Of a stretch of DNA of 51,395 bases, positions 4,479-21,673 are shown one piece after another. Location: NCBI GenBank assembly GCA_046153645.1, contig JBJXGI010000104.1, positions 1 through 51,395 of the forward strand, written 5' to 3'. Positions within the stretch are counted from its first letter, which is position 1. Each line of letters starts with the position of its first letter. The DNA comes from Elusimicrobiota bacterium. Lineage in GTDB: Bacteria > Elusimicrobiota > Elusimicrobia > F11. The notes under the pieces were generated by a model. The model made no database searches. It worked only from the letters and a program-made list of their open reading frames with translations, and was not told the DNA's origin. A program made the translations under genes and the position numbers.

Positions 4479-5420
4479 TTGAAATCAAACATAAAAATGA
4501 AAATCAATCTCTTTTTAAAAACTCATTATTCTATTCGCTTCATTTTTGGTGGGTTTTTATTTTTTTTGTTCGCATTTTTAAACTTGAGTGCCGAAAGTCT
4601 TGCTGGTCGAACATTTAATAGAACCATAGCCCAGGATTTTTCATTTGACCCACCTTATGGTGATTTTGCCGGAATTACTTATAATCCGCTCACCCAAACC
4701 TATTTTGTGACAGATAACGTTTTAGATGCCATGTTTGAAATTCAATCCAATGGGACATTGATAAGAACAATCGATATTAATGGTTTAAAACGCCCTGGTA
4801 TTGCAACCGCAGATGCCGAGGGGATTGCATGGATGAGAGGTCAGACATTTGCCTTGGCACTTCATGATGGTAAAGAGCTTGCGGTGGTCAATATTGTGCC
4901 AACAACAACTATTCTCAATCGAGGCGATGCAATCATCTATAACATGTCATCGGGTCCAGGAAAACCTAAAGGATTAACCTATGTAGGTCCAGAAGATGCT
5001 TTTTATTGGGTGACAAAAGATATTCCAAAAGCTGTTGTTAAATCTCGCATTAATATAATCACAGGAAACTTAGATACACTTTCAACCAAAAATGTAGATG
5101 TCCTCCCCGCTTCTAATCTTGCTGATATAGCTTTTTTCCCAAGACTCTCTGCGCATACATTTCTCATCAGCGAATCGTCAAAGACTGTGATGGAGGTTGA
5201 TTTATCAGGTCTTTCTGTCGTTTTAAAAAGCAGTTTTTCTCTTACAGGTGCAGTTATTCCAAAAGCAGGCGGGGTGACATTTGGCGCTGATGGAAAAATG
5301 TACATTGTTGGCAAACATATGAGTGCCACTCCGGAAGATGATTTCACTGTTTTTTCGCCAACAGCGCCCATTACAAATAGAGTGCCCAATCCAAGAATTA
5401 AATTCGAATCGACGCCCTAA
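4479..5420 (+). CDS. Secreted YjiK/SdiA-regulated family beta-propeller protein (paralogue A); alternative start ATG 4497
   Basis: Signal peptide (FIFGGFLFFLFAFLNLSA). Blade motifs AGITYNP, DAEGIAW, PKGLTY, LADIAF, AGGVTFGADG. Ends in NRVPNPRI stub. Confidence 0.7.
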   Translation: MKSNIKMKINLFLKTHYSIRFIFGGFLFFLFAFLNLSAESLAGRTFNRTIAQDFSFDPPYGDFAGITYNPLTQTYFVTDNVLDAMFEIQSNGTLIRTIDINGLKRPGIATADAEGIAWMRGQTFALALHDGKELAVVNIVPTTTILNRGDAIIYNMSSGPGKPKGLTYVGPEDAFYWVTKDIPKAVVKSRINIITGNLDTLSTKNVDVLPASNLADIAFFPRLSAHTFLISESSKTVMEVDLSGLSVVLKSSFSLTGAVIPKAGGVTFGADGKMYIVGKHMSATPEDDFTVFSPTAPITNRVPNPRIKFESTP

Positions 5421-5458
5421 ATTTAAGACTTAATAAAGTAGATCGTAAGGAGAATAAA

Positions 5459-6946
5459 ATGAATACCAAACAAAAATTAATAAGGATGATGCAATCATCG
5501 TTTCCAGCCCTGCTGTTTGGGTTGTTAATAATGATGACAACGCGCGTCTTTGCGGGTGATCCTATTTATGTTTATGACAGTAATAATAATGGATCAGAAG
5601 TTGTCACATTAAGTGGCGCTCAAAGCGGTGACCCCGATGGGGCGATTATTGATTATCAATGGAAAGTCAATAACGTCACTGTTTCAAGCGGATATGGACC
5701 TAAAATTCCAAATTTACAGTTTACATTCAATCTCGGCACAACAGGAGTGAGTCTTGTGGTGCGTGACGATGTTCAGGTTTCAAGTACAGATGTTGCTAAT
5801 GTGATTGTATTGCCGCCATCATCTAACAGTCCTCCTGTTGCCAATGCAATAGTTCCGTCTGTGGTTATGGCCAATGCTGTTAATGTGGCATCGGTAACAG
5901 TAAATGCCTCAGCCAGTACTGATGCAGATGGTGACCTTATTACGCGATATAGATGGACAGAAGGAGCGACTACCTATTACGATGGTGCCTCTCCAACAGC
6001 AACTCTGGTTGTCAGTGGTCTTGGGCTTCATAATATTCGGTTGACTGTTTATTCAACAGATAATCTCAATATTACTCAAGCAGGCTTTCGAGATTTCTCT
6101 GTAACATTAGATCCTCTCAGCGTTATGCTAGCCGGGCGCACTTTTAATCGCACCGTCGGCAAAGACTTTAATTTCGGTAACCCAGCCTTTGGGAATTATG
6201 CGGGAATTACATTTAATCCGTTATCACAGACTTATTATGTGACGGAAAATAATCAAGATAAAGTATTTGAAATTCAGCAAGACGCAACATTGATTCGGAT
6301 AATTGATATTGGAGGCCTTAAAGCGGCAGGAATTCCAACGGCTGATGCAGAAGGAATTGCCTGGATGTCAGGAACGAAATACGCGATTGCGCTTCATGAT
6401 GGAAAAGAAATGGCCATTGTTAATATTGTTTCAACAACAACGGCTCTCTCTCGACCTGAGGCGACAATTTACGATATCTCTTCTGGACCGGGGAAACCCA
6501 AAGGTTTGGCTTACGCTGGATGGGAAAATGCGTTTTATTGGGTCGCTAAAGATACACCCAAAGCGGTCATAAAAAGTCAAATCAATCCCATTACAGGTGC
6601 ATTGGAGACATTGTGGTCAAAACTTGTTGATAACTTGCCTGTGTCAGACCTTTCTGATGTTGCAACCTTCCCAAGAATATCTTCTAGTTTGATACTCGTT
6701 AGTGAATCATCTCGAACGGTGATGGAAGCCGACTTAACTGGGCCAACAGCTGTTCTGAAAAGTTCTTTCTCATTGTCTGGATGGAATATTCCTCAAGCGA
6801 GTGGTTTGACATTCAATCAAGATGGGAATTTGATCATTGTGGGTAAATCTGTGGCGAACACACCTGAGGATGATTTCAATGTGTTTGTCGGAACAGCTCC
6901 TATTGCTAATAAGAAGCCAAATCCTCTTATTACTTCGGGACTGTAG
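5459..6946 (+). CDS. Secreted PKD-PKD-YjiK/SdiA-regulated beta-propeller protein (paralogue B)
   Basis: AAGGAG RBS, signal peptide ending VFA. PKD motifs SGDPDGAIIDYQW and STDADGDLITRYRW. Propeller clearly paralogous to A. Confidence 0.75.
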   Translation: MNTKQKLIRMMQSSFPALLFGLLIMMTTRVFAGDPIYVYDSNNNGSEVVTLSGAQSGDPDGAIIDYQWKVNNVTVSSGYGPKIPNLQFTFNLGTTGVSLVVRDDVQVSSTDVANVIVLPPSSNSPPVANAIVPSVVMANAVNVASVTVNASASTDADGDLITRYRWTEGATTYYDGASPTATLVVSGLGLHNIRLTVYSTDNLNITQAGFRDFSVTLDPLSVMLAGRTFNRTVGKDFNFGNPAFGNYAGITFNPLSQTYYVTENNQDKVFEIQQDATLIRIIDIGGLKAAGIPTADAEGIAWMSGTKYAIALHDGKEMAIVNIVSTTTALSRPEATIYDISSGPGKPKGLAYAGWENAFYWVAKDTPKAVIKSQINPITGALETLWSKLVDNLPVSDLSDVATFPRISSSLILVSESSRTVMEADLTGPTAVLKSSFSLSGWNIPQASGLTFNQDGNLIIVGKSVANTPEDDFNVFVGTAPIANKKPNPLITSGL

Positions 6947-6985
6947 GTTAAAACAAGTATGAAATTTTCGTTCCATGGATAAGAT

Positions 6986-9049
6986 ATGAGTATCGAAATG
7001 CTTCGATCAAATATCAAACGAGCAATGTGGCACTTATTAATAAGTGTTATGTTGCTCGTTTCTGTGGGTCGATTATGTGCGGGTGACCCGATATATGTTG
7101 TTGATAATGATGGCAATGGATCGGAGGTTGTTAATTTAAGCGGAGCGCAAAGTGTAGATCCTGATGGGGCCATTATTGATTTTCAGTGGCTGGTTAATAA
7201 TGTGGTTGTCGCCAGTTATTTCGGTCCTCGGATTAGCGACTTTCAATATACGTTCTCACTAGGGACAACAACAGTCAGCTTGGTTGTTCGAGATGATGTG
7301 CAAGTTTCAAACTCAGATGTTGTTAATGTCATTGTTCGGCCTCAAGGTTCTAATCTTCCCCCTGTTGCGGGTGCAAGTGTTCCTCTCATTGGAAATATAG
7401 ATGTAACAGGAGTGGCCACCATTTTTGTGGACGCTTCTTCAAGTAGTGATCCTGAAAATGATGTTATTCACCGGTACCGGTGGATGGAAGGTGCAGCAGT
7501 AATGTACGATGGGTCTTCTTCTACTGCAACCCTTGCTTTGGAAGGTCTTGGGCTTCATACCATTCGTTTAACTGTTTATTCCACTGACAATCAAGGTATC
7601 ACACAATTTGACGTTAAAGATTTTGCCATCAATATTTTCCCTCCAAATGGTGAACGACTGGCCGGGAAAATATTTAATAAGGAATTAGGGTCAGATTTCG
7701 CCTTTAGCAATATTTACGAAGATTATGCGGGTATTACTTTTAATCCATTCACACGAACCTATTATATGGTGGAAAACCAGGAAGATGTGATTATTGAAAT
7801 GCAAGAGGATGGCACTCTTATTCGCACCATTAACATTCATGAATTGAGAAAAACAGGCGCGTTGGAAGCCGATGCAGAAGGAATCACTTGGATGTATGGT
7901 CAAACTTATGCGTTGGTGATGGAAGGAGGCGAAGAAATGGCGATCTTGGACATCACCCCTGCTTCTTCAGCTTTCTCAAGGAATCAAGTTGAAATTCATG
8001 ATCTTTCTGGAGACCCTAAGGGAGTCTCTTATAATCCATTGGACGATGCGATATATTGGGTCAGTCAATCGGGGCCTAAGCGAGTTATCAAAACTCAAAT
8101 AGATCCAGCAACCAGGGAGCTGAAAACAATTTCTAATACCATTGTTGAAAATTTACCGATTGTGGATTTGGCTGATATTGCCTTTTTCCCGCGTTTAACG
8201 CCTTATGCATTATTAATAGGTCAAAATACACCCATCATTTTGGAAGTGGATTTATCGGGCACGCAACCTGTTTTAAAAAGCTCTTTTTCGTTGTCGGGTT
8301 GGAATATTCCAAAGCCCGGAGGATTGGTGTTTGGCGCCAATGCCAAAATACTCATCGTGGGAAAACATGTGGCTGGCACTGCTGAAGATGATTTGAGTAT
8401 ATTTACAGCCACCAGTACCATTCCAAATAAAGCGCCCATTGCTAATTTAGTGGGTCCTGATATTGTTCCAGATTTAAATGGTAGTAAAGATGAGCTGGTG
8501 ATTTTTAAAGGAGAAGGAAGCGTTGATGTTGACGGCTCTATTATTGATTACACATGGAAAGTAAATGACGTTATCGTCGCTTCGGGTTATGGCCCTAAAG
8601 TTTTACCTTTAAATTATACTTTTGCTCTTGGAACATCGACTGTTTCTCTCCTGATTAGAGATGATTCGCAGATTGTTAGCCAAACAAGTTCTGTCGTTAC
8701 AGTGATTGATACTTTTCCTTCAGGGCAGCACCCTTCAGAACCTTTCCGTCAACCAGATGATTTTCCTCGCCAATCGATTAATTATGTCCATCGCAACGCG
8801 TTGGTTCAACAAGCAGAAATTTTTGTTGATTTGAAAACAGAAGGGGCAATTAGAATTCATATTTATGATTCTTTAGGTCAAGAAGTTCGCGAGATTGTAA
8901 CAACTGCTTTTGTCGCTGGTGCTTATCGAATTCCTTGGGATTTACGCAATGCCAGTGGATCTAAAGTTTCTTCTGGAGTTTATTATGTGTTAATAAAAAC
9001 GCCGAGTGAAACCAAACGCGAAAAATTTGTTGTGATGAGGAACGGCTAA
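6986..9049 (+). CDS. Secreted PKD-PKD-propeller-PKD protein with C-terminal FlgD-Ig/T9SS type-A-like sorting domain (paralogue C)
   Basis: Same PKD and propeller motifs as B, plus a third, complete PKD. C-terminus IRIHIYDSLGQEVR...WDLRNASGSKVSSGVYYV...KFVVMR is typical of FlgD_ig/Por-CTD-like domains. Confidence 0.75.
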   Translation: MSIEMLRSNIKRAMWHLLISVMLLVSVGRLCAGDPIYVVDNDGNGSEVVNLSGAQSVDPDGAIIDFQWLVNNVVVASYFGPRISDFQYTFSLGTTTVSLVVRDDVQVSNSDVVNVIVRPQGSNLPPVAGASVPLIGNIDVTGVATIFVDASSSSDPENDVIHRYRWMEGAAVMYDGSSSTATLALEGLGLHTIRLTVYSTDNQGITQFDVKDFAINIFPPNGERLAGKIFNKELGSDFAFSNIYEDYAGITFNPFTRTYYMVENQEDVIIEMQEDGTLIRTINIHELRKTGALEADAEGITWMYGQTYALVMEGGEEMAILDITPASSAFSRNQVEIHDLSGDPKGVSYNPLDDAIYWVSQSGPKRVIKTQIDPATRELKTISNTIVENLPIVDLADIAFFPRLTPYALLIGQNTPIILEVDLSGTQPVLKSSFSLSGWNIPKPGGLVFGANAKILIVGKHVAGTAEDDLSIFTATSTIPNKAPIANLVGPDIVPDLNGSKDELVIFKGEGSVDVDGSIIDYTWKVNDVIVASGYGPKVLPLNYTFALGTSTVSLLIRDDSQIVSQTSSVVTVIDTFPSGQHPSEPFRQPDDFPRQSINYVHRNALVQQAEIFVDLKTEGAIRIHIYDSLGQEVREIVTTAFVAGAYRIPWDLRNASGSKVSSGVYYVLIKTPSETKREKFVVMRNG

Positions 9050-10176
9050 TGAAAAAAATTGGTTTTTTTGTTTTAAGTATTTTTTTATTTTCTTCTTTTT
9101 TATTGGCGAAGGGTTCGGGGACTTCGGCTGGTTTAACCTTTCTGAGAAACAGTGGCGCTCGGTCTGGCGCTTTGGGAGAGGCTTTTGTTGCCATGACCGA
9201 TGATATTACGGCAATAGATTTTAACCCTGCTTCTTTGGCTACTTTAGGATTTAACCAAGCCTCATTACATCATGAGCAAGGTCTTTTTGATGATTCATTT
9301 AATAAAGCTATGTTAGGAATACGCCATCGACCAAAACGTGCTTTTGGGATCTCGGCAGGGTTTTATGATAGTGGCAAAGCTAATTTATTTGATGGAGTAA
9401 ACCCCATTCGATCAGTCACAGCGCAACAAGATTTCGTTTCAAATTTAGGGTATGGGTTCCGTTATAAAACAATGGATTGGGGAGTTAGCATAAAATATTT
9501 GAAATCCCAACTTGCTGATACAAATAGTGCGTCAGCTTTTTCTGGAAATATTGGTATCCAATATCAACTTTCAGAAAAGTTTCGAATGGGAGCAAGTGGT
9601 CCGATTTATCAATCTCATCTCCGTTACACCGATGTTACTGAAGAAGTACCGCGAATATATCGGATTGGAATGAGTTTTTTAGGAAAACTTCCTTTGGGAA
9701 CCGGAAATCTTCCTGTTCAATTTCTTTGTGATGTTCCCTATGATTCAACGGAGGGTTTGGCTTCTTTTAATTTTGGTGCTGAGGCACAATTAGGGCAATT
9801 AATGGCTTTACGAATGGGTTTTAATACAAGATCTGACATTCAGCAATTTTCAATTGGCTCAGGGTTCCATTTTCGCCGAATGAATTTAGATTATTCATTT
9901 GGTTTGGCTAATAATAGAGCTTTTGAATCTATCCAAAAAATTAATTTTTCATTTCAATTTGCTGGGGAATTAAAAATAGAAAAAGTTGAAAGAAGTAGTT
10001 ACCAACTATATGAAGTAAAAGACGGTGAAACCTTGGAATCGATTGCTCTCAGTCGGCTTGGTTCTGCTGCGAGCTGGGCAGACATTTTTGCTCTTAATAA
10101 ATATATGTATTCAAGTCCTGATCAAATTGTCCCTGGAAAACGCATCCTAATTCCGACTCCAAAGAAGATAGATTGA
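9049..10176 (+). CDS. PorV/PorQ-like outer-membrane beta-barrel with C-terminal LysM domain
   Basis: FLRNSGARSGALGEAFVAMTDD...FNPASLA N-terminal signature of FadL/PorV-like barrels. C-terminal YEVKDGETLESIA...WADIFALN...IVPGKRILIP LysM. Overlaps the upstream stop (TAATG). Confidence 0.75.
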   Translation: MKKIGFFVLSIFLFSSFLLAKGSGTSAGLTFLRNSGARSGALGEAFVAMTDDITAIDFNPASLATLGFNQASLHHEQGLFDDSFNKAMLGIRHRPKRAFGISAGFYDSGKANLFDGVNPIRSVTAQQDFVSNLGYGFRYKTMDWGVSIKYLKSQLADTNSASAFSGNIGIQYQLSEKFRMGASGPIYQSHLRYTDVTEEVPRIYRIGMSFLGKLPLGTGNLPVQFLCDVPYDSTEGLASFNFGAEAQLGQLMALRMGFNTRSDIQQFSIGSGFHFRRMNLDYSFGLANNRAFESIQKINFSFQFAGELKIEKVERSSYQLYEVKDGETLESIALSRLGSAASWADIFALNKYMYSSPDQIVPGKRILIPTPKKID

Positions 10177-10248: not shown

Positions 10249-11436
10249 ATGTTTAAAAAATATTTTTATTTAAAAAATAATAAAGCACTGATTTTGTTTG
10301 TGAGCATTTTTGTCGGAGTTGTTTCTCTTATAAATGCCGCTCAAATTAACACCAATGGTAAACTTGAAATCGCGGCCGACGATTACTCTTTTTCAGCTCG
10401 GATTACAGGAAGATTACATGTGGATGGAAACTTTTACCGAAGTGGTTCCGATAGACGGAAACTGCCGAGTGGTACTTTTGTGAGAAGAGCGCGTATTGGA
10501 GTGAGGGGAAACTTTAGGGCCTGGGAATATCGTGTTGATTTGGACAATGCCACCGATACGCCTGATTTAAGAGGGGCTTATATTCGGCGTTTAATTGGCC
10601 CAGGAAAATTTTCAATTGGACAATTTAAAGTATTTGAGAGTATTTCTGAAATGACAAGTTCAAACCACACCACTTTCATCGAAAGAGCTTTTGTTGGACA
10701 TATTGTGCCGGGCATGAAGATTGGTGTTGCGTATAATGGCTCGACTGGTCATTTTGGATATTCTGGAAGTATTTACAATGCGCGTAAAGCTTCTGATGGT
10801 GAAGCGCGACCTACAAATGCAGGAGTTGGCGGGGTCTTGCGGGGTTTTTATGCACCGGTTCATGAAAAAACAACCGCTGTTCATTTTGGTGCCAGCTATG
10901 CCTATGAAGCCACTGATAGCTCAGGAACGCGCGTTCGGATTAGTCCTTTGGGTCGAGCCGAAGAATTTAAAGACGGTCGGGAATTCAGGTTTAATATTTA
11001 TGACCGTCGAGATCGCCATGTCAAGGTTGATCGAATAATATTTGAGACGGCAGCTGTCAACGGTCCTCTTTCTATTCAAGCTGAATATCTTTTTGGGCAA
11101 GCCAAAGCCAATAAAATGACTGACGATTCATTTCGTGTCTGGTATGTTGAACTGAGTTATGTGTTAACAGGTGAAGCCAAAGAGTATGATTTAAAAAGAG
11201 GCCGAATAGAGTCTTTAGAGCCAGAGCGAGAAATGGGTGCTTTTGAAATAAGCGCTCGTCATCAACGTGCCGAAAGAGAAAAAATAAATCAAGCGGAGTT
11301 AAGTGCCACTGAGTTTGGTTTAACTTATTATGCTAATGCCAATGTTCGGTTTTTGGTTAATTATGGTTGGTCTCATAATAAATTAATAGATGATAAACCT
11401 CGTTTGTTATCAACTCGGGCGCAATTTAATTTTTAA
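10249..11436 (+). CDS. Phosphate/pyrophosphate-selective porin, OprO/OprP family
   Basis: Signal peptide, GRLHVD, FVRRARIG, IGQFK, SSN..TFIER, YVELSYVLTGE, C-terminal F. Located in a Pho context. Confidence 0.8.
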   Translation: MFKKYFYLKNNKALILFVSIFVGVVSLINAAQINTNGKLEIAADDYSFSARITGRLHVDGNFYRSGSDRRKLPSGTFVRRARIGVRGNFRAWEYRVDLDNATDTPDLRGAYIRRLIGPGKFSIGQFKVFESISEMTSSNHTTFIERAFVGHIVPGMKIGVAYNGSTGHFGYSGSIYNARKASDGEARPTNAGVGGVLRGFYAPVHEKTTAVHFGASYAYEATDSSGTRVRISPLGRAEEFKDGREFRFNIYDRRDRHVKVDRIIFETAAVNGPLSIQAEYLFGQAKANKMTDDSFRVWYVELSYVLTGEAKEYDLKRGRIESLEPEREMGAFEISARHQRAEREKINQAELSATEFGLTYYANANVRFLVNYGWSHNKLIDDKPRLLSTRAQFNF

Positions 11437-11437
11437 G

Positions 11438-12454
11438 ATGTTAGAAACTCAAAAGGTAAAAAAGTTTTTTGGATTTATGGTTATCATAACCTTCCTTTAT
11501 CCTTTCAATGTATTTTCTTCTGAACTGATGTCCATTGATGGAAGACCGGCTGTTGTGAAAGATATTATTCAAGTTAGGTTAAGAGATTTGCATCCAACCC
11601 AACCCTCTATTGGTTTTGATCGCGTCTACTATAAATTAGGGCGCTTTCAAGCTGACCGACGAAAATTATTTGATGATTACTGTGTGAAAAATGGTGGACG
11701 TGGTATTCTCAATTTTTCAAATGAATCAAAAATACATGATCAAAAATCATTTACTTGTGTTGAAGAAATCGGATCTCAACGAGAAGAAATGAAAACAGTT
11801 GTCATTGCCCCCAATGGAGAATTGTATTTAACTGATGGGCACCATACGTTTAATGGTTTTTGGGAAATGAACGAAGGGGGGCCTGACTTAAAAATAAACC
11901 TTATTATTTCTCGAGATTATAGAGAACTTGAAACAATGAACGCTTTTTGGGAACAAATGAAGGCCGAACAAAATGTTTGGCTTTTTGATGTAAATAATAA
12001 GACCATTGAGCCGAAAGATCTTCCTCAATCATTGGGTTTGAAAAATTTCCAAAATGATCAATATCGAGCTTTAATGTATTTCACTCGACGCATTGCTTGG
12101 CGTCCTCCAAGGGAAATTACTGTTCCCGATCCCGATAATTACGATGACCGTTACCCAGGGGTTCCTTTTTTAGAGTTTTATTGGGTCCGAGAAATAATGA
12201 GCAAAATTGATCTCAAGGATTATAATTTATCAACCCGTGAAGGTTACCTCGCAGTTATTCAGGATTTCGGGAAAATTATTATGGAAACGAAAACCAATAA
12301 CGTGGGAGGCTCTAATAAATCCGTTATTGAAATGGGGCAGTTTCGTATATTTAATAAACGTGAATTAGCTCGCATTGACCGCCCTGGAACAGGAAAATTG
12401 GCCTATATGCTTGGCTATAAAAGAAATTTTTCTCAACGGCAAAGTTTTAATTAG
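11438..12454 (+). CDS. Secreted ParB/Srx-fold (ParB-like nuclease, ParBc_2 type) protein
   Basis: Signal peptide from ATG 11438. Motifs LHPTQPSIG, LYLTDGHH, NDQYRAL, PFLEFYW. No HTH domain. Confidence 0.7.
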   Translation: MLETQKVKKFFGFMVIITFLYPFNVFSSELMSIDGRPAVVKDIIQVRLRDLHPTQPSIGFDRVYYKLGRFQADRRKLFDDYCVKNGGRGILNFSNESKIHDQKSFTCVEEIGSQREEMKTVVIAPNGELYLTDGHHTFNGFWEMNEGGPDLKINLIISRDYRELETMNAFWEQMKAEQNVWLFDVNNKTIEPKDLPQSLGLKNFQNDQYRALMYFTRRIAWRPPREITVPDPDNYDDRYPGVPFLEFYWVREIMSKIDLKDYNLSTREGYLAVIQDFGKIIMETKTNNVGGSNKSVIEMGQFRIFNKRELARIDRPGTGKLAYMLGYKRNFSQRQSFN

Positions 12455-12482
12455 CTCTATATATTTCTTGGAGGAATAAAAA

Positions 12483-13493
12483 ATGTTTAAAAAATGTCTA
12501 GTGATTTTTTTGTTGAGTGTTGTTGGTTTTTTTCACGCAACACACACAAAAGCAAGTGCACTTATTAATGGGGCTGGCGCTACATTCCCTTATCCTATTT
12601 ATAGTAAGTGGTTTGACATGTATCATAAATTAAACCCAGAAGTACGAATTAATTATCAATCTATTGGTTCGGGTGGTGGAATTCGGCAGTTTCTGGCCAA
12701 AACGATTGATTTTGGCGCAACCGATGCTCCCATGAATGAAAAAGAAATGGCTCAAGCAGAAGGAACTGTTTTTCATGTTCCCACTGTTTTGGGTGGTGTT
12801 GTTCCCTCTTTTAATGTTCAAGGGGTTGAAACGCTTAATTTTACAGGAGAAGTTTTGGCCAAAATTTATCTTGGAAAAATTACCAAGTGGAGTGATCAAG
12901 CCATTCGAGATTTGAATCCAGATGCGAAGTTGCCAAAAGAAGAAATCGTTGTTATTCGCCGCGCTGACGGATCGGGAACTACTTTTTGTTTTACGGATTA
13001 CCTCTCCACCGTCAGTCCAGACTGGAGCCGAAAAGTGGGTAAAGGCGAATCTGTTAATTGGCCTGTCGGTCTTGGCGGAAAAGGAAACGAAGGCGTGGCA
13101 GGTCTTATCCGCAAAACAAAAAACTCTCTTGGTTATGTTGAACTTGTTTATGCTAAACAAATGAGAATGAGTTATGGAGCTGTAAAAAATTCCGCGGGTA
13201 TTTTTGTAAAAGCCGATTTGGAATCTGTCAGTTCCGCGGGGAATGCGATTTCGATGCCAGAAGATTTCCGAGTATCCATTGTTAACGCTCCTGGAGAAAA
13301 AAGTTATCCCATTTCTACCTTTACGTGGCTTTTAGTAAAAGAACAAAATACCGGCGATGTGGGCACTAGTATTCGATCTTTTTTAGAGTGGATGTTATCA
13401 GACGGTCAAAAGGTTGCCCCTCAATTGGATTATGCTCCTCTTCCCGATCACGTTAAAGAAATGGTCAGAAAAATGCTCCCTAAAATCAAATAG
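12483..13493 (+). CDS. pstS: Phosphate ABC transporter substrate-binding protein (copy 1)
   Basis: GAGATFPYP, YQSIGSGGG, DFGATD, RRADGSGTT, GKGNEGV, YPI motifs. GGAGG RBS. Confidence 0.95.
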   Translation: MFKKCLVIFLLSVVGFFHATHTKASALINGAGATFPYPIYSKWFDMYHKLNPEVRINYQSIGSGGGIRQFLAKTIDFGATDAPMNEKEMAQAEGTVFHVPTVLGGVVPSFNVQGVETLNFTGEVLAKIYLGKITKWSDQAIRDLNPDAKLPKEEIVVIRRADGSGTTFCFTDYLSTVSPDWSRKVGKGESVNWPVGLGGKGNEGVAGLIRKTKNSLGYVELVYAKQMRMSYGAVKNSAGIFVKADLESVSSAGNAISMPEDFRVSIVNAPGEKSYPISTFTWLLVKEQNTGDVGTSIRSFLEWMLSDGQKVAPQLDYAPLPDHVKEMVRKMLPKIK

Positions 13494-13503
13494 TTTTTTA
13501 GTC

Positions 13504-13570
13504 GTTTTATTCTCTTGTCATATAGAATTCACATGGTTCTTATTTAGCTATTAAATTCAATGTTTATAAT
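13504..13570 (+). promoter_or_regulatory. Pho box-like repeats with TATAAT -10
   Basis: GTTTTAT-tctc-TTGTCAT-atag-AATTCAC-atgg-TTCTTAT at 11-bp period, then TATAAT at 13565-13570. Confidence 0.65.
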
Positions 13571-13614
13571 GCCCTTATCAATTAAATAGGTGTTGTTAAT
13601 TTTTATGAGGTGTT

Positions 13615-13797
13615 ATGGAGCAAATGTTTTTTTATCAATTAGAGGCTGATGTTTTGGCTAGCAGTATACGGAGTCAAAAAAATCTTTGCGAAGAACTAAT
13701 TCGTGAATTAGAAGGTAAGGATTTTGATTCAGAAAGTGTGAATAAAAAGATTTATGAAATAGAATCGGCGCTTAAGAAAATTTGTAAAGCAGCTTAA
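13615..13797 (+). CDS. Small helical-hairpin hypothetical protein
   Basis: GAGGTG RBS, 60 aa, amphipathic heptad pattern, similar to the next ORF. Confidence 0.65.
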   Translation: MEQMFFYQLEADVLASSIRSQKNLCEELIRELEGKDFDSESVNKKIYEIESALKKICKAA

Positions 13798-13798
13798 G

Positions 13799-14005
13799 TT
13801 GAGTATGGTTTATACTAAAAATGATTCAAGGGGACGCTTGATTCATGCGCTTAAACAACAACAAGAGCATTTGGCAGAAGTGTTAGAAGCCATTGGGCGT
13901 AAAGACATGTCATTTGATGAGGTTAAAGAGTATTTGAAGTGGATTCATCAAAATATGAAAGAAATGCGAAAATCGCCGAAGTTTAGATTTAATAAAAATC
14001 ATTAA
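13799..14005 (+). CDS. Small helical-hairpin hypothetical protein (start TTG 13799 or ATG 13805)
   Basis: Directly follows the previous ORF, amphipathic helices, followed by a terminator. Confidence 0.6.
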   Translation: MSMVYTKNDSRGRLIHALKQQQEHLAEVLEAIGRKDMSFDEVKEYLKWIHQNMKEMRKSPKFRFNKNH

Positions 14006-14015
14006 GATTAATTTT

Positions 14016-14054
14016 GCTGGGGTTTCTATTCCCCTGGAACCCTGGCTTTTTTTT
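14016..14054 (+). terminator. Intrinsic terminator
   Basis: GCTGGGGTTTC...GGAACCCTGGC stem (with G-U pairs) followed by T8. Confidence 0.8.
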
Positions 14055-14111
14055 GTCCGAAGCATCCAAAAGAACGAAGGTAAGTGTCATAATGTTTGTA
14101 GAAAGGAACAC

Positions 14112-14795
14112 ATGTATAAAGAAAAAATCCTCATTATCGAAGATGAAAAAGATCTTGTTAAACTTCTTAAATATAATCTTGAAAAAGAAGGATACCGAAT
14201 TGTAGCGGTTCACGATGGTGAAGCTGGTTTGACTGCGTTTCGAAAGGAAAAGCCCGATCTTATTATTCTTGATGTCATGTTGCCCAAGCTTGATGGGTTT
14301 GATTTTTGTCGGATGGTTCGGCAAGATTCGAAAACGCCTATTTTGATGGTAACAGCAAAAACCGAAGAAGTGGATCGTGTCTTGGGGCTTGAATTGGGGG
14401 CTGATGACTATGTCACCAAACCTTTTAGTGTGAGAGAAGTGTTGGCTCGCATTAAAGCCATATTGCGGCGCGTCGGAACAAGTGATGAAGAAAAAACGCT
14501 ACTTCGCATGGGAGAGTTAGAAGTTGATTTGGAAAGATATGTTACAAAAGTAAAAAATCAACCCATTGCGCTTAGCTCCAAAGAATTTGAATTTCTTAAA
14601 TGTTTAATTGCGGCCAAAGGACGTGTTTTATCTCGCGATCAACTGCTCGAAAAAGTTTGGGGATATGATCAAGCTTTGAATATTGATACGCGCACGGTTG
14701 ACCAGCATATTGCCCGGTTGAGGGAAAAACTCCTTTCCGAGTCGTTTCGTATTGTCACTGTGAAAAATGTAGGCTATCGCTTGAAACTTGATTAA
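14112..14795 (+). CDS. phoB: OmpR/PhoB-family response regulator
   Basis: REC (IIEDE, DLIILDVMLP, GADDYVTKPF) plus winged helix (SRDQLLEKVWG, RTVDQHIARLR). Adjacent to the kinase and pst operon. Confidence 0.9.
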   Translation: MYKEKILIIEDEKDLVKLLKYNLEKEGYRIVAVHDGEAGLTAFRKEKPDLIILDVMLPKLDGFDFCRMVRQDSKTPILMVTAKTEEVDRVLGLELGADDYVTKPFSVREVLARIKAILRRVGTSDEEKTLLRMGELEVDLERYVTKVKNQPIALSSKEFEFLKCLIAAKGRVLSRDQLLEKVWGYDQALNIDTRTVDQHIARLREKLLSESFRIVTVKNVGYRLKLD

Positions 14796-14804
14796 AATGT
14801 TGGC

Positions 14805-15926
14805 ATGCCGCCCCATATCTTTGATTTTTTTAAAAACCCTCCAGAAGAAGCAACACCTTTACAAGAAATGAATTCTATTGAATCTCCAAGTTTAAATGAA
14901 AGAGCCCAGTTTATGGCAGTCTTGGATAACATGGTTGATGGTGTTGTTGCAGTAGACCGACAAGGTAAAATTTTAATTGTGAACAAGATTTTGTGCGCCA
15001 CGTTTTTGCTTTCGGCTGATGAATCTAAAGGAAAAAGAATATTAGAAGTATTGCGGTACAGTGAATTAAATCAGCTCATTCAAGAAATATTATCCGATCA
15101 GAAAAATAGAATTGTTGAGATTCGCGCTTTTTCTCCAGAAGAGCGATATTTTGAGGCACACGGAGCCCCGCTGATGGTTGATGAGGTTTGTCAGGGTGTG
15201 TTGGTCGTTTTGCATGATATGACGCGCATACGCCAGTTAGAGCAAATTAGGAGAGATTTTGTGGCTAACGTTTCGCATGAATTGCGAACGCCGCTTTCTT
15301 CTATTAAAGGATATGCCGAAACATTGATTAATGGTGGTTTAGAAGATGAGAAAAACAGAACAGAATTTGTAGAAGCCATTGAACGACAGGCCGATCAAAT
15401 GACTTCGTTGATTGAGGATTTACTTGATTTGGCTGCCATCGAATCAGGAAAAAGAATTCCGACGCACGATCATGTGTCTATGGAAGGTTTGTTTAAAGAG
15501 TTATTTAAATCTTTGGCGTCATTGGCGCAAAAGAAAAAAGTGCAACTTTGTTTGGAATTGGATCAAAAAACAACACCCGTCCGGGGCGATAAAAATCAAT
15601 TGGCGCAAGTATTTCGGAACTTATTGGAAAACGCTATTAAATTCAACCAGGAAAATGGTTCTGTTAGAGTATTTGGAATCGAAAAAGAAGGGGTTCTTCA
15701 TGTGTCTGTTCAAGATACTGGTATCGGAGTCCCCGCTCAGGATTTAAATCGAATTTTTGAGCGATTTTACCGAGTTGATAAAGCGCGTTCACGCGAAATG
15801 GGGGGAACGGGGCTGGGTCTTTCTATCGTTAAGCATATCGTTGAATCTCATGGCGGCGCTATCAATTTAGAAAGTTCTATTGGTAAGGGTAGTATCTTTA
15901 CTATTTCTCTTCCTATATATAAGTAA
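14805..15926 (+). CDS. phoR: PhoR-like histidine kinase (PAS-HisKA-HATPase) without TM segments
   Basis: RRDFVANVSHELRTPL, NLLENAIKF, DTGIG, IFERFYRVDKARSR, GGTGLGL. PAS region from MVDGVVAVD. Confidence 0.9.
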   Translation: MPPHIFDFFKNPPEEATPLQEMNSIESPSLNERAQFMAVLDNMVDGVVAVDRQGKILIVNKILCATFLLSADESKGKRILEVLRYSELNQLIQEILSDQKNRIVEIRAFSPEERYFEAHGAPLMVDEVCQGVLVVLHDMTRIRQLEQIRRDFVANVSHELRTPLSSIKGYAETLINGGLEDEKNRTEFVEAIERQADQMTSLIEDLLDLAAIESGKRIPTHDHVSMEGLFKELFKSLASLAQKKKVQLCLELDQKTTPVRGDKNQLAQVFRNLLENAIKFNQENGSVRVFGIEKEGVLHVSVQDTGIGVPAQDLNRIFERFYRVDKARSREMGGTGLGLSIVKHIVESHGGAINLESSIGKGSIFTISLPIYK

Positions 15927-15937
15927 TCATTTTTAAG

Positions 15938-15966
15938 TTGTCACGCCACTGTCACATACCTTTTAC
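15938..15966 (+). promoter_or_regulatory. Pho box upstream of porin-pstSCAB-phoU
   Basis: TTGTCAC-gcca-CTGTCAC-atac-CTTTTAC: near-consensus PhoB direct repeats at 11-bp period. Confidence 0.85.
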
Positions 15967-16051
15967 CATGCCATAATGGCTGCCCTCTCTAAGATCGCTT
16001 AGTATGCAGGTGCTTTAAATCTAATACAAATAAGTAAGTAGGAGGACTGAC

Positions 16052-17218
16052 ATGCAGTCTAAAATGAATAGGGGAAAAGCAATATTTGTGGCTTTGGGAT
16101 TCATGTTTACCGGATCTCATGCGTTTGCAGATCCAATAGTGTCGTATAGCAAATGGGTGGAAGAAATTAAGTTTAGCGGAGACTTAAGACTCAGGCATGA
16201 GAATTTTGATAAGAGAACAGCGGGTCAAACCGATCGTCAGAGACAGCGGTTTCGACTTCGGCTTAATACAGATATTAGGCTTCCAGCCAATTTCCAGATT
16301 AAAATGACCTTGGCTTCGGGCACAGGTGAACAAGTCTCAACCAATCAAAGTTTTGATAATTTATCTTCCCAAAAAGATATCTACATCGATAAGATTTTTG
16401 CCATTTATCAACCTTTAACTTGGTTAAAATTACAAGGTGGAAAAATGGAAAATCCCATTTGGCGCCAATATTCAAGCGATGTTGTATGGGATAGCGATTT
16501 TGGCCCAGAAGGTTTTAGTCAGGGAATTGAACAGTTGGTAGGTCCCTTTAACATCTTTGTTAATGCCCTGCAAATGGTTGTGGATGAAGATTCTGGTTTC
16601 AATGTTGGTGTATCTACGCAAGGTAAACAAGCCGATCAATGGATGTTTGCCCATCAAATTGGCATTGAGACCAAATTGCCCTTTGAAAAAAGATTAAGGT
16701 TCGCCTATGCCAATTATTACTGGCATAATGAAAACCAAGGAACCTTTAGCCAAGTGGCAACAAATGAAGGAAACCGCAGAAGCAGCTCGGTGTTATCGAA
16801 TAATTTCAACGTTGATGAATTTACAGGAGAACTTTTTGGTTGGATGTTCAATAAACCTCTATCTCTTCAGTTTACCGCAGTTGAAAACCGCGGCGCCAGA
16901 GGAAATTTAAATTCCAAACACAACAATGGTTATCAAATCGGGGGTATTTTCGGAAAGGCTCGTGAAAAAAACACATTCGAACTTGCTTATTTCAATAAAC
17001 AAGTAAGAACTGATGCGACTGTTGCAGATGTCGCTGATTCCGATTTTGGAGATGGTGGAACGAACAGAAAAGGGCATATTGCCTGGATTTCGTATGCGCC
17101 ACTGGATTGGATGGTTGTAACGATAAAGCATTTTGATACAGAAGTTATCGAACCAGCTTTGTCTCCAAATAGAGACGACATCAATCGCACACAAGTTGAT
17201 TGGTCGGTCAAATTTTAA
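16052..17218 (+). CDS. Putative outer-membrane porin (Porin_5-like) heading the pst operon
   Basis: GGAGG RBS, signal peptide, FSGDLRLRHE, RQRFRLRL, VWDSD, DSDFGDGGTN, C-terminal VKF. Confidence 0.8.
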   Translation: MQSKMNRGKAIFVALGFMFTGSHAFADPIVSYSKWVEEIKFSGDLRLRHENFDKRTAGQTDRQRQRFRLRLNTDIRLPANFQIKMTLASGTGEQVSTNQSFDNLSSQKDIYIDKIFAIYQPLTWLKLQGGKMENPIWRQYSSDVVWDSDFGPEGFSQGIEQLVGPFNIFVNALQMVVDEDSGFNVGVSTQGKQADQWMFAHQIGIETKLPFEKRLRFAYANYYWHNENQGTFSQVATNEGNRRSSSVLSNNFNVDEFTGELFGWMFNKPLSLQFTAVENRGARGNLNSKHNNGYQIGGIFGKAREKNTFELAYFNKQVRTDATVADVADSDFGDGGTNRKGHIAWISYAPLDWMVVTIKHFDTEVIEPALSPNRDDINRTQVDWSVKF

Positions 17219-17235
17219 GAACGGGAGGATCAAAA

Positions 17236-18258
17236 ATGAAAATGACAAAAATAGTAACAGCAGGTTTTATGGCCATCGGAATGGCGTTTGGTTCCGTTAT
17301 GCCGGTAAGAGCAGAAACATCATTGAGCGGAGCGGGAGCTACATTCCCTTATCCAATCTACAGTAAATGGTTCGATGAATATCATCGTGAACATTCAGAT
17401 ATCAAAATAAATTATCAATCAATTGGTTCTGGGGGTGGAATTCGTCAATTTACTGCGCGTACTGTTGATTTTGGCGCGACCGATGGACCGATGACGGATA
17501 AACAACTATTTTCTGTTGATGGAAAAGTTCTTCATATCCCCACGGTGTTAGGCGCGGTTGTTCCCGCTTACAATGTTTCCGGCGTAGATGACTTAAAGTT
17601 CAGCCCTGAAGTCCTTGCTGGTATTTTCCTTGGAAATATTAAAACTTGGAGTGATCCTGCTATTAAAGCCATTAATCCAACAGCGACTCTTCCGGATATG
17701 CCTATTACTGTTGTCCGTCGCTCTGATGGATCTGGAACCACTTACATTTGGACTGATTTTCTTTCTAAAGTAAGCCCTGAATGGCAGAAAAAGGTTGGTA
17801 AGGGAACTTCTGTTAACTGGCCAGTTGGACTTGGTGGGAAAGGGAACGAAGGTGTTGCGGGAACCATTAAACAGATTAAAAACTCTATTGGTTATGTCGA
17901 ATTAATTTACGCTAAACAAAATAATATTGACTACGCTGCTGTTCGTAATGCCTCAGGTAAGTTTGTGAAAGCTGACATTGCTTCTGTTACTGCAGCGGCT
18001 GCTAGTGCTGCCAAAAACATGCCCAAAGATTATAGGGTTTCAATTACAAATGCTGCAGGAGATGACGTATATCCTATTGCGTCTTTTACTTGGCTTTTGG
18101 TATATGAGAAAAATCCTGGTGCCAATGGGCAAGTTCTTAAGAACTTTTTAGGGTGGATGCTTGAAAAAGGGCAATCATTAGCTCCTGATTTGGGCTATGC
18201 ACCGCTTCCCGAAAGTGTTAAAAAAATGGTTGAACAAACGGTGAACACCATCAAATAA
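17236..18258 (+). CDS. pstS: Phosphate ABC transporter substrate-binding protein (copy 2)
   Basis: GGAGG RBS before ATG 17236. Same PstS motifs as copy 1. Confidence 0.95.
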   Translation: MKMTKIVTAGFMAIGMAFGSVMPVRAETSLSGAGATFPYPIYSKWFDEYHREHSDIKINYQSIGSGGGIRQFTARTVDFGATDGPMTDKQLFSVDGKVLHIPTVLGAVVPAYNVSGVDDLKFSPEVLAGIFLGNIKTWSDPAIKAINPTATLPDMPITVVRRSDGSGTTYIWTDFLSKVSPEWQKKVGKGTSVNWPVGLGGKGNEGVAGTIKQIKNSIGYVELIYAKQNNIDYAAVRNASGKFVKADIASVTAAAASAAKNMPKDYRVSITNAAGDDVYPIASFTWLLVYEKNPGANGQVLKNFLGWMLEKGQSLAPDLGYAPLPESVKKMVEQTVNTIK

Positions 18259-18261
18259 TTA

Positions 18262-19251
18262 ATGTCTATTAGTACAGTAGAAAAAACAACTTCTTCCATA
18301 CCATCCCCGGCCGCTCCTCTTAATCCTGTTAAGAGAAACCGACTTCAAGAGCGTGCTGGGGATCGGTTATTTCGGTATACCATGATGATGTTTGCTGGCA
18401 TTATTGTGGCGTTGGCCTTGGCGATGGCCATTGTTTTATCTTATGAATCTCGATTTGCTTGGAAAGAATTTGGTTTAAAATTTCTTTGGACTTCGACTTG
18501 GGATCCTGTCGAAGAGATTTATGGTGCACTTCCTTATATATATGGAACAATCGTTTCTTCTTTATTAGCGCTTCTTATCTCTGTTCCCTTGGGGTTGGGA
18601 GCCGCTATCTTTTTGGCTGAAATGGCCCCTAAAAAAATATCAAATGCGCTCATATTTTTAATTGAACTATTAGCGGCAGTTCCGAGTGTTATTATTGGTC
18701 TTATGGGGATTTTTGTGTTGGTTCCCGCGGTTGCTTATGTGCAGCCTTTTTTTATTAAGTATTTGGGTTTTATGCCGTTTTTTTCAGGACAGCCCTATGG
18801 AATTGGAATGTTTTCAGCGGGACTGGTATTGGCCATTATGATATTGCCTTATATCACCAGTATTTCTCGAGATGTGTTGTTGTCTGTTCCCACTCATTTG
18901 AAAGAGGCTTCTTATGGTTTAGGCGCCACTCGTTGGGAAACCATTAAGATGGTTTGTCTTCCTTTTGCTAAAAGTGGAATTTTTGGAGCTATTTTTTTAG
19001 CGCTAGGACGATCGTTAGGAGAAACCATGGCCGTAACCATGGTGATTGGTAATGTTCATAAAATTTCTCTTTCTTTATTTGATCCGGGTTACAGTATGGC
19101 GGCCGTTATTGCCAATGAATTTGCAGAAGCTACTTCTGATATGTATGTACATGCACTTATTGCTATTGGTTTGTCACTTTTTGGAATTACGATTGTCATC
19201 AATGGTTTAGCACGCTATATGATTTATAAAATGGGGAAAACGGCAAAATAA
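18262..19251 (+). CDS. pstC: Phosphate ABC transporter permease
   Basis: IELLAAVPSV, EASYGLGATRWE, LGRSLGETMA, IANEF. Confidence 0.95.
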   Translation: MSISTVEKTTSSIPSPAAPLNPVKRNRLQERAGDRLFRYTMMMFAGIIVALALAMAIVLSYESRFAWKEFGLKFLWTSTWDPVEEIYGALPYIYGTIVSSLLALLISVPLGLGAAIFLAEMAPKKISNALIFLIELLAAVPSVIIGLMGIFVLVPAVAYVQPFFIKYLGFMPFFSGQPYGIGMFSAGLVLAIMILPYITSISRDVLLSVPTHLKEASYGLGATRWETIKMVCLPFAKSGIFGAIFLALGRSLGETMAVTMVIGNVHKISLSLFDPGYSMAAVIANEFAEATSDMYVHALIAIGLSLFGITIVINGLARYMIYKMGKTAK

Positions 19252-19253
19252 AA

Positions 19254-20096
19254 ATGGAAAATTATCAGTCAAGAAAATTTAAAAACAATTTAGTCACAGT
19301 AATAACTGGCGGATTGACAGTTATTTGTTTGTCCTTTCTTTTTATTATTTTGGGTTATATTGTTTTCAACGGTGTGACTTCTGTAAATTGGAATTTTTTG
19401 GTGAAGCTTCCCGTGCCTTTAGGAGAAACGGGCGGTGGAATTGCTAATTCGATTGTGGGATCTTTAAAGGTTGTTGCACTTGCGGCAGCAATTGGTTTGC
19501 CAATCGGAATTTTTGGAGCGGTATATTTGGCATTTTATGGGAAAGGAAGGTTGGGGTTTCTCATTAGATATTGCGCAGATGTATTAAATGGCGTGCCCTC
19601 TATTGTAATGGGAATTTTTGCTTATGCGATTGTTGTTCTTCCGATGGGTCATTTTAGTTCATTGTCTGGAAGTATTGCTCTTGCTGTTATCATGGTGCCA
19701 CTTGTACTGAGAACAACGGAAGAATTTTTGAAGTTGGTGCCGATGAGTATTCACGAAGCGGCACTTGCACTTGGAATCCCCTATTGGAAGGTTATTTTGA
19801 GAGTTGTTCTTCCTACCGCTTCTAGAGGAATTGCCACCGGCGCTATTTTGTCTATTTCTCGAATCGCGGGTGAAACAGCTCCTCTTGTTTTTACCGCTTT
19901 TGGAAATCGTTTTTGGGGAGATGGAATTTTACATCCCATTGCCACTCTTCCCCACACCATTTTTACTTATGCCATTTCTCCTTATGAAGATTGGCACAAT
20001 CAGGCTTGGGCCGCTGCTTTTATTTTAATGATGGTTGTATTAACTGGAAATCTCATCGCGCGAACCTTAATGAAACCTCGAGGGATGTCAAAATAA
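19254..20096 (+). CDS. pstA: Phosphate ABC transporter permease
   Basis: [35 protein letters not shown]. Confidence 0.95.
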
Positions 20097-20097
20097 A

Positions 20098-20964
20098 ATG
20101 GGAATTACTATGGAAAAACAAATCGTGGAAAAAGCACCATTAAAAAACAGTGGAAGTGAATTACTATCAGGTATTGTAGAATCTCAAACTCCAATGAAAA
20201 CTGAAGAGAAAAAAAATATTGCGGTTGAAATAAGAAACTTACGAGCAGGATATGGTTCCGGTGACACTCTAAAAGGAATCAATTTGCCTATTTATGACAA
20301 GAAAATCACCGCTATTATTGGGCCATCAGGGTGCGGTAAGTCGACCCTCATTCGGTGTATTAATCGCATGCATGAAATTCATCCCACGGCCAGCACCTCG
20401 GGAGAGATTATTATTGAGAATAAAAATATTTTTGATTTAGACCCTGTTCTTTTACGTCAGCAAGTAGGAATGGTGTTTCAGCGTCCTAATCCTTTTCCCA
20501 CAATGACTATTTTCCAAAATGTTGCCGCTGGCCTTGTATTAAAAGGGGTTAAAGATAAAAATAAATTATCTGAAGTTGTTGAGTTAAGTTTAAAAAGGGC
20601 CGCCATTTGGGATGAAGTGAAAGATAAACTTCAGCAAAATGCGCTTAATCTTTCCGGTGGTCAGCAGCAAAGGTTATGCATTGCGCGCGCTTTGGCGGTA
20701 AGCCCCAAGGTTTTGCTTTTAGATGAGCCTTGCTCCGCGCTTGATCCCATCGCGACGGCTCGAATAGAAGAGTTATTGCTTGAACTAAAACAGAATTTAA
20801 CCATTGCTATTGTGACTCATAACATGCAACAGGCGGCACGCTCTTCAGATTATACCGCGTTCATGTTGTTGGGTGATTTGATAGAGTTTGGTGTCACAGA
20901 TACAATTTTTACAAATCCTGTTGATCAAAGGACACAAGATTATGTCACCGGTCGATTTGGATAA
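20098..20964 (+). CDS. pstB: Phosphate ABC transporter ATPase
   Basis: [53 protein letters not shown]. Confidence 0.97.
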
Positions 20965-20995
20965 TTCAAAACCACAATCACAAGAAGGGGGCCGT

Positions 20996-21673
20996 GTGAA
21001 GCGCCACTTTGAAGAAGTTGAAGAAGAATTAAAATATCGTCTCCTTCATATGGGAAGTTTAGTTGAAGAAATGATTCATTTGGCTATTTTTTCCCTCATT
21101 GAAAGAGATTCTTCTCATTTTGAGAAAATTTTTCATATTGAAAAAGAAGTTAATCAACTTCATATTGAAATTGATGACCGTTGTTTTAAACTATTGGCAC
21201 TCTTTCAGCCGACGGCCGCAGATTTACGGTTTACTGTTGGGGCCATCAAAATTAATTCAGATTTAGAGCGAATTGGTGATCAGGCAGTTAATGTGTCTCA
21301 AACCACAGCGATTTTGTTAAAGCATCCTCAACTCGAAAAGAAGCTATTGGATATTCCAAGAATGGCTGAATTGGCTAAACGAATGTTGAAAGACAGTTTA
21401 GATGCTTATGTGAAACGAGATGTGGAGTTGGCTCGGTCTGTTGTTCAAAGAGATTCCGAAGAAGATAAGTTAAAAAGTGAAGCTTTTCATGAATTGCTTC
21501 ACCTTATGCAATCGGATTCCTCCACCATTCAGCGTGCAATGAGTTTGATTTTAATTTCTAGAAACTTAGAGAGAATTGCCGATCACGCGACCAACATCGC
21601 TGAAGACGTTATTTTCATGGTTTTAGGAAAAGACATTCGCCATCACACCGAAGATCAAGAAGTAAAAAATTAA
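20996..21673 (+). CDS. phoU: Phosphate signalling protein PhoU
   Basis: QPTAADLR, DLERIGD, LERIADHATNIAE. Likely GTG start at 20996. Confidence 0.95.
   Translation: MKRHFEEVEEELKYRLLHMGSLVEEMIHLAIFSLIERDSSHFEKIFHIEKEVNQLHIEIDDRCFKLLALFQPTAADLRFTVGAIKINSDLERIGDQAVNVSQTTAILLKHPQLEKKLLDIPRMAELAKRMLKDSLDAYVKRDVELARSVVQRDSEEDKLKSEAFHELLHLMQSDSSTIQRAMSLILISRNLERIADHATNIAEDVIFMVLGKDIRHHTEDQEVKN

Follow-up and report, generated by a model that had tools for sequence, protein, structure and literature searches.

The window, by which we mean the whole stretch of DNA analysed (contig C33, 51,395 nucleotides, from an Elusimicrobiota genome of 2.6 Mb that is 99.7% complete), carries near its start three genes, here called A, B, and C, that lie head to tail with spacings of 38 nt (A-B) and 39 nt (B-C). 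Each encodes a signal peptide and a beta-propeller of the YjiK type; they differ in what surrounds the propeller. A and B end in a short C-terminal stub that corresponds to the first strand (strand A) of a PKD domain, and B and C begin, behind their signal peptides, with a PKD domain from which that strand is missing (PKD1'). We refer to the stub as a donor and to the strand-A-less domain as an acceptor, terms that anticipate the interaction argued for below. The features of the locus are as follows.

Gene A, 4479..5420, plus strand: signal peptide, YjiK-type six-bladed propeller, C-terminal stub; putative donor only
Stub of A, 5376..5420, plus strand: NRVPNPRIKFESTP followed by the stop codon, from N300; equivalent to PKD strand A
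Gene B, 5459..6946, plus strand: signal peptide, PKD1' without strand A, PKD2, propeller, stub; putative acceptor and donor
PKD1' of B, 5555..5818, plus strand: residues 33-120, beginning at the A/A' bulge
Stub of B, 6908..6946, plus strand: NKKPNPLITSGL followed by the stop codon, from N484
Gene C, 6986..9049, plus strand: signal peptide, PKD1' without strand A, PKD2, propeller, complete PKD3, type IX secretion system (T9SS) type A sorting domain; putative acceptor and anchor
PKD1' of C, 7082..7345, plus strand: residues 33-120; putative acceptor
PKD3 of C, 8426..8725, plus strand: complete, with strand A at 8426-8455 (N481-G490)
Sorting domain of C, 8819..9034, plus strand: C-terminal; TIGR04183 Por_Secre_tail, FlgD_ig-like
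Barrel gene (P0004), 9049..10176, plus strand: PorV/PorQ-family outer-membrane barrel (NF033709) with C-terminal LysM; its start overlaps the stop of C

The locus is best explained as encoding a beads-on-a-string protein composed of YjiK-type propellers, PKD-pair spacers, and a T9SS-type sorting domain with its own PorV-LysM barrel. An initial annotation had proposed propellers, a sorting domain on C, and the adjoining PorV-LysM barrel, and profile scans confirmed this layout, with propellers of the SdiA-regulated/YjiK type and a sorting domain on C only; the strings and coordinates it gave were all exact in the three translations. PF06977 (SdiA-regulated/YjiK; cut-off 21 bits) was matched by the propellers of A, B, and C with 71.4, 70.8, and 57.0 bits (E values from 1e-15 to 1e-20). 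PKD profiles were matched by C at 40.5 bits (PF18911) and by B at 30.0 bits (PF22352) and 29.3 bits (PF18911), against a cut-off of 27. C passed the TIGR04183 cut-off of 23 with 27.5 bits (29.3 bits in the genome search), and P0004 passed that of NF033709 (97.8 bits versus 90) while staying below the equivalog cut-offs for PorV (38.4 versus 250) and PorQ (50.4 versus 220).

Between positions 4200 and 14200, no terminator-like site was found upstream from 10039, which lies inside the end of the barrel gene, and hence none between A, B, C, and the barrel gene; promoter-like sites in the same interval occurred at the shuffle expectation (28 versus 25.7), and no search for a Pho box was made. In a related genome (G010), the chain genes overlap by TAATG where the window has gaps of 38 and 39 nt. 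We count the small gaps, the overlap, and the lack of an intervening terminator as support for co-expression of A, B, and C. The likely start of gene A is the ATG at 4497, with signal peptide cleavage between LSA and ES. Mature B and C both begin at G33 with GDPIYV (nt 5555 and 7082), right behind A-x-A signal peptide ends (VFA and LCA, each followed by G). The LCA-G site of C was considered as a lipoprotein site and rejected, since eight of the nine acceptors have no Cys there (judged by eye).

The split inside the PKD domain could be measured in several ways. Against the Pfam profile PKD_4, residues 481-571 of C aligned from position 1 of 85, and residues 40-116 of B from position 11 only; PKD3 of C and residues 35-125 of B are 52% identical (E 9.4e-20). 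PKD3 of C opens with NKAPIANLVG-PDIV at N481 (nt 8426), and the stub of A, NRVPNPRIKFESTP, has the same Ca2+-ligand Asn, with Pro at +3 and Ile at +7; the stubs of A and B are 14 and 12 residues long, respectively. To place the cut in a common frame, we counted the conserved Asn from the ..VF motif of the propeller and to the DxDG motif of the PKD domain. This Asn is 7 residues past the ..VF motif in all fused and stub-ended cases measured and 32-38 residues from DxDG in complete domains (13 junctions); the PKD domains that follow signal peptides have 24-25 residues before DxDG (9 of 9). Counted from the Asn, 10 of the 12 stubs measured are 11-14 residues long and the other 2 are 35-36, so that each stub covers what the acceptor is without, with an overlap of 2-6 residues: the earliest stub end is at position 10 or later, and the latest acceptor start is at position 9 or earlier. 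According to a study of the clostridial collagenases ColG and ColH, strand A of a PKD domain begins at the Asn and is interrupted by a Pro bulge, after which strand A' joins the other sheet (PMC4356367). The cut in our proteins is at this A/A' bulge; the acceptor retains A' and loses A alone, and all nine N-terminal PKD domains of the family are Ig-like folds minus one strand, the edge strand A and not a core strand. The complementary split that the initial annotation had described is thus borne out by the frame measurements and, as the comparison with homologues shows, it is conserved in relatives and looks specific to the family.

Database searches with B and with A as queries yielded 13 stub-ended proteins (A, B, and 11 relatives) and 9 proteins in which a signal peptide is followed by a truncated PKD domain (B, C, and 7 relatives). 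Three sets each share a contig: P0020/P0011/P0016 (locus L010 of G010), P0019/P0009, and P0014/P0010; P0193, P0007, and P0195, for each of which the longest contig is given as 29.8 kb, are presumed adjacent. Other relatives are fused. In G003, which belongs to the genus group of the split G010, the chain is one frame of 1,424 aa, a signal peptide followed by three propeller-PKD-PKD modules, running on into a terminal module of propeller, PKD3, and sorting domain; its neighbourhood matches that of the window (large membrane protein, chain, PorV-LysM barrel, OprO/P porin, ParB-like nuclease). P0047, P0007, P0008, and P0063 are partly fused chains, and the fused relatives as a group have 2 to 4 propellers. 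The fused junctions, for example IPNLPPQAEIRSGQGARIIDSDRNG, equal a stub plus a mature N terminus with nothing inserted and are colinear with the split forms.

The initial annotation had asked whether stub and truncated PKD domain occur together in homologous operons, and in the four loci that could be counted the numbers of donors and acceptors are equal: 2:2 in G000 (the genome of the window), 2:2 in G010, 1:1 in P0193/P0007/P0195, and 0:0 in the fully fused G003. Stubs are confined to loci that also carry a PKD domain without strand A. The equality of the counts bears on the strongest rival explanation, to which we give a substantial minority share of our belief, namely that the locus is a non-assembling relic. 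A C-like gene would have been duplicated in tandem with one end point just past strand A, and A would then have come from B; A and B would be free periplasmic propellers, with C alone at the outer membrane, the stub would be a harmless tail, and PKD1' would be a stable N-terminal domain. Matching numbers of donors and acceptors argue against such a relic.

The acceptor form looks specific to the family by sequence comparison. Among 17 non-family proteins with a PKD domain near the N terminus, the 7 with a signal peptide all keep a P-x-A-x-A strand A behind it, and the rest are fragment-like (judged by eye); strand A is likewise retained in P0181 and in a distant relative in G002. The family itself was found in 3 of 401 sampled genomes of the phylum and in 4 of 12 genomes of family f1, with none beyond f1; a scan of a genome collection returned one true operon (L010) and two weak matches, and a metagenome scan returned a single fragment of 1.3 kb. 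We also observed a distant branch of the family (L031:764-3499 on contig C283 of G002; P0053) that has spacers of the PKD2 type only, is fully fused, and keeps strand A after the signal peptide.

A neutral tail should drift or shorten with time. The initial annotation had likewise made its interpretation depend on conservation of the stubs in homologues, and the motif N-x-x-P-x-x-x-[I/V] is kept in all 13 stubs, with Ile at +7 in 12 and Val in 1, whereas the neighbouring positions (1, 2, 4, 6, and 8-10) are highly variable and no stub is shorter than the part that the acceptor is without. Between G000 and G010, synonymous codon differences occur at the conserved Asn, Pro, and Ile. The conserved residues are those with a known structural role in strand A of the PKD domain in the collagenase study (PMC4356367), which a relic would not lead one to expect. 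The same argument is strengthened by the covalent junctions: in 15 of these, Asn is present in all and Pro at +3 in 14, and position +7 is occupied by Ile (5), Ala (5), Pro (2), Val (2), or Leu (1), so that the free stubs are stricter at this core-facing position than the tethered strands. Finally, the motif is absent from both propellers that have a non-PKD linker behind them (P0016 and P0018), which indicates that the propeller itself does not need it and is a further point against a relic.

The same source describes the Ca2+ site of bacterial PKD domains as formed by the first Asn of strand A, the carbonyl of the next residue, a DxD motif, and a later Asp (PMC4356367). Residues D58, D60, D103, and D104 are invariant across the nine acceptors, and the stubs keep the Asn; if the equivalence drawn from the motif alignment is correct, the split would divide a Ca2+ site between two proteins.

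AlphaFold2 monomer models were obtained for B (9 sequences, mean predicted local distance difference test [pLDDT] 83.9) and C (15 sequences, mean pLDDT 85.8). In the model of B, the propeller and PKD2 are confident, and the model resembles E. coli YjiK (3QQZ) with a target TM-score of 0.80 and a root mean square deviation of 3.0 Å (Foldseek). The stub of B has no secondary structure, its pLDDT falling from 60 to 38, and the monomer model places it against neither the propeller nor, in cis, PKD1'. The equivalent ten residues within PKD3 of C have a pLDDT of 91 and form beta-bridges at 485 and 489. These models bear on a second alternative, cis self-complementation, in which the stub of B folds onto its own PKD1' and the products are monomers and not chains. 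Both halves are indeed present in the B chain, and the N and C termini of a propeller lie close together, which would favour such closure. We nevertheless consider it very improbable, given that AlphaFold2 does not dock the stub and that in the fused relatives strand A is always part of the next module; moreover, A has a stub without an acceptor and C an acceptor without a stub, and cis closure explains neither.

Our best reading of these sequence data, held with roughly even confidence, is that the locus encodes a split propeller chain re-joined by Ca2+-assisted completion of the split PKD domain. In this genome the chain is encoded as three pieces with signal peptides for Sec export, both cuts falling at the A/A' bulge of a PKD domain, and these pieces would re-join once they have left the cytoplasm. 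A would contribute its free C-terminal stub as strand A to PKD1' of B, and the stub of B (NKKPNPLITSGL) would likewise complete PKD1' of C. Each joint would be an edge-strand addition with the Ile at +7 facing the core, and the Asn of the stub together with the following carbonyl would complete the DxD/DD Ca2+ site of the acceptor. The predicted product is a noncovalent A-B(n)-C chain that is held by C and expressed with the Pho regulon.

The latter prediction and a third alternative concern the genes on either side of the locus.

P0005, 2..4336, plus strand: 1,444-aa membrane protein with a weak ChaN/Tiki-like N-terminal region (translation, Pfam)
Phosphate-uptake genes, 10249..21673, plus strand: OprO/P porin, ParB-like nuclease, PstS, PhoB, PhoR, further porin, second PstS, PstC, PstA, PstB, PhoU (Pfam)

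The phosphate context claimed initially is confirmed by the Pfam assignments, which include an OprO/P porin, a ParB-like nuclease, two PstS, PhoBR, PstCAB, and PhoU, and the gene content makes a phosphate-regulon setting of the locus a solid assignment. A phosphoester-scavenging or binding role of the propellers is suggested by gene context alone. The ParB-like nuclease gene (PF08857; 11390-12454) lies between the OprO/P porin and PstS genes and occupies the same place in G003; it may have a role in DNA-phosphate scavenging.

Large membrane proteins like P0005 are conserved upstream neighbours of the chain genes and are present also in G010 and G003, where the upstream open reading frames (ORFs) match SdiA-regulated and Phytase-like families (Pfam). 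The genome of the window also encodes a paralogue of P0005, P0006 (3,467 aa; contig C56, L009:251-10654, minus strand), which shares the scaffold and the weak ChaN/Tiki-like N-terminal region and in which four YjiK-type propellers and a complete PKD pair are inserted; neither P0005 nor P0006 matched an NCBIfam family. In G003, the genes for the large membrane protein and the chain are separated by an insertion of AbiEi-like antitoxin and nucleotidyltransferase genes, which Pfam identifies as a type IV toxin-antitoxin pair (L030:4778-6245). The conserved presence of P0005-like neighbours, one of which has propellers fused into it, is compatible with a third alternative, that the stub is conserved for another partner and serves as a C-terminal signal or docking peptide for the PorV-LysM barrel, for P0005, or for a periplasmic protease or chaperone. 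The stub ends also hint at some constraint on the terminus, seven of the nine A-type stubs ending in Pro and three of the four B-type stubs in G-[L/M]. Nevertheless, the conserved positions match the strand-A motif of PKD domains and line up with the fused forms, stubs occur only beside a strand-A-less PKD domain, and no other candidate shows a matching feature; we therefore regard another partner as unlikely.

Several observations weigh against a re-joined chain, and some of them favour the relic. The truncated PKD domain, which the initial annotation had posed as needing a donated strand, is modelled confidently without strand A in both B (pLDDT of 65-87 in 10-residue blocks, somewhat below the propeller and PKD2) and C (73-90), which counts in favour of the relic. 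The models show PKD1' as a PKD fold from which one edge strand is absent, a prediction that is silent on stability, and with only an edge strand missing the acceptor may be stable alone. All of the evidence, moreover, derives from roughly seven operons, which belong to a single narrow clade and are not independent of each other.

A tree of 29 propeller modules, from which three weak modules of P0006 were left out, points in the same direction. The propellers pair by genome (P0019 with P0009, P0014 with P0010, the two modules of P0047, and modules 2 and 3 of G003), and this clustering of A and B propellers indicates duplication or gene conversion, so that the two break points are one inherited feature, which fits the relic. 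The identity of the break point at both junctions, which the initial annotation had emphasized, is real in position but does not count as independent evidence. Gene conversion could also help to keep the stubs alike. An orthology of A-, B-, and C-type propellers was rejected on the same tree: neither the A nor the B type forms a clade, and grouping, in two clades, is confined to modules with a linked sorting domain.

Export to the surface is a further difficulty. No sorting domain was found in A or B in the Pfam and NCBIfam scans, again in line with a relic. In the genome, SprA gave a weak match below the cut-off (49.6 bits versus 200), PorU was matched over its own C-terminal domain only, with no match to its catalytic part, and GldM gave no match, although control genomes were equally silent for GldM. 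With A and B lacking a sorting domain and T9SS core parts matched weakly or not at all, surface location of the whole assembly can only be proposed, and in a diderm A and B would stay periplasmic unless C carries them out. The genome has many PorV-family barrels, and in the genome-wide survey 9 of 14 sorting-domain matches lay directly upstream from their own PorV-family gene on the same strand, which suggests that each cargo has its own barrel and that no single shuttle serves them all. These pairs are located as follows.

Cargo-barrel pairs: C40:40251-41634, C30:11310-12454, C69:37234-38384, C71:54551-55680, C74:25477-26642, C20:30532-31667, C43:10216-11350, C99:2172-3379, and window 8819-9960

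The fused relatives raise a related point. The 1,424-aa frame of G003 ends 20 codons past a T9 run (L030 10714-10722; contig C15 near base 58713) that lies just behind the last PKD pair (..DFF), and the -1 frame is colinear with the in-frame module junctions (FFFTILPFNAGKLAGHWF) and leads into the terminal module (propeller, PKD3, and sorting domain), which lacks a signal peptide. The ..FF point is also where P0047, P0008, and P0007 end, which makes, with G003, four protein records of different assemblies, and P0017, P0194, and P0195 begin at an LAGR motif without a signal peptide; the DNA of the T9 run was inspected for G003 only. The break could be due to slippage during transcription, to phase variation of the tract, or to an assembly error that recurs at the homopolymer. 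If the stop is real, the fused relatives would also make a form without sorting domain and without stub, and unanchored chains may be functional, as free propellers would be in the case of a relic.

The initial annotation went further than a re-joined chain and proposed a fibre with tip, stalk, and base. In a full version of this scheme, the split PKD domain would be a Ca2+-clamped snap-fastener, the chain would re-form in the periplasm or at the surface, B would add to itself and set the length, A would cap, and the sorting domain of C would carry or hold the assembly on its private PorV-LysM barrel. The scheme fits the 2 to 4 propellers of the fused relatives, but an open-ended polymer of B is speculation; we regard the complete surface fibre as doubtful, and an open-ended surface filament as less likely than a re-joined split-domain chain. 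The analogy with donor-strand pili that came with it stands in so far as the acceptor is an Ig-like fold minus one strand, but the missing part is edge strand A up to the A/A' bulge and there is no core groove. With an edge strand and not a core groove involved, pilus-like fibres stable in sodium dodecyl sulfate (SDS) are not implied, which is another reservation about assembly.

Chaperone-usher and type V (FimA/Mfa) pili are nonetheless the closest parallel in principle. They share the strand-deficient Ig-like fold, which in pili is completed by a strand of the neighbour, as is predicted here, and an order of donor-only end, acceptor-plus-donor middle, and anchored base; type V pili are found in bacteria that also have T9SS-type machinery. 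They differ in that the donor here is a C-terminal tail behind a large propeller, the Ca2+ site would span the joint, sister genomes have the chain in covalent, single-polypeptide form, and the locus has no gene for a chaperone, an usher, a lipoprotein precursor, or a processing protease (the ORFs from 2 to 28135, scanned with Pfam and NCBIfam, gave no match to chaperone, usher, or pilin-type families). Among solved PKD domains, the nearest in sequence are those of ColG and ColH (4AQO, 4U6T, 4U7K, 4JGU), which share the N-x-x-P start of strand A, the Pro/Gly A-A' bulge, and the Ca2+ site of Asn, DxD, and Asp; those domains are complete and covalently linked, and the available part of the study describes no strand A supplied in trans (PMC4356367). 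E. coli YjiK (PF06977; 3QQZ) shares the propeller; it has no known function and lacks PKD spacers, stub, and sorting domain. The T9SS type A cargo and PorV shuttle resemble the locus in that C passes TIGR04183 and its neighbour P0004 the cut-off of the PorV/PorQ family, and differ in that the barrel here carries LysM and that cargo and barrel appear to be paired one to one. Our literature search found no account of strand complementation of a PKD domain, the related work concerning type V, CFA/I, and FimH pili, and nothing relevant on Elusimicrobia and PorV or on SdiA-regulated beta-propellers and phosphate.

Should the halves not re-join, the locus would be a clear case of tandem duplication and PKD-repeat recombination altering the length of a modular surface protein. 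If they do, it would provide a natural split-domain connector made from one of the commonest extracellular domains, for which the fused and split sister genomes would serve as an evolutionary control, and it could yield a small Ca2+-switchable tag-and-catcher pair. Re-joining would also suggest that proteins without a sorting signal share that of their partner, and it would widen donor-strand assembly from pilins to PKD domains and to an enzyme-like array of propellers. As a snap-fastener, the split PKD domain would represent a chaperone-free, edge-strand form of donor-strand assembly in which fused and split states have been interchanged within one bacterial family.

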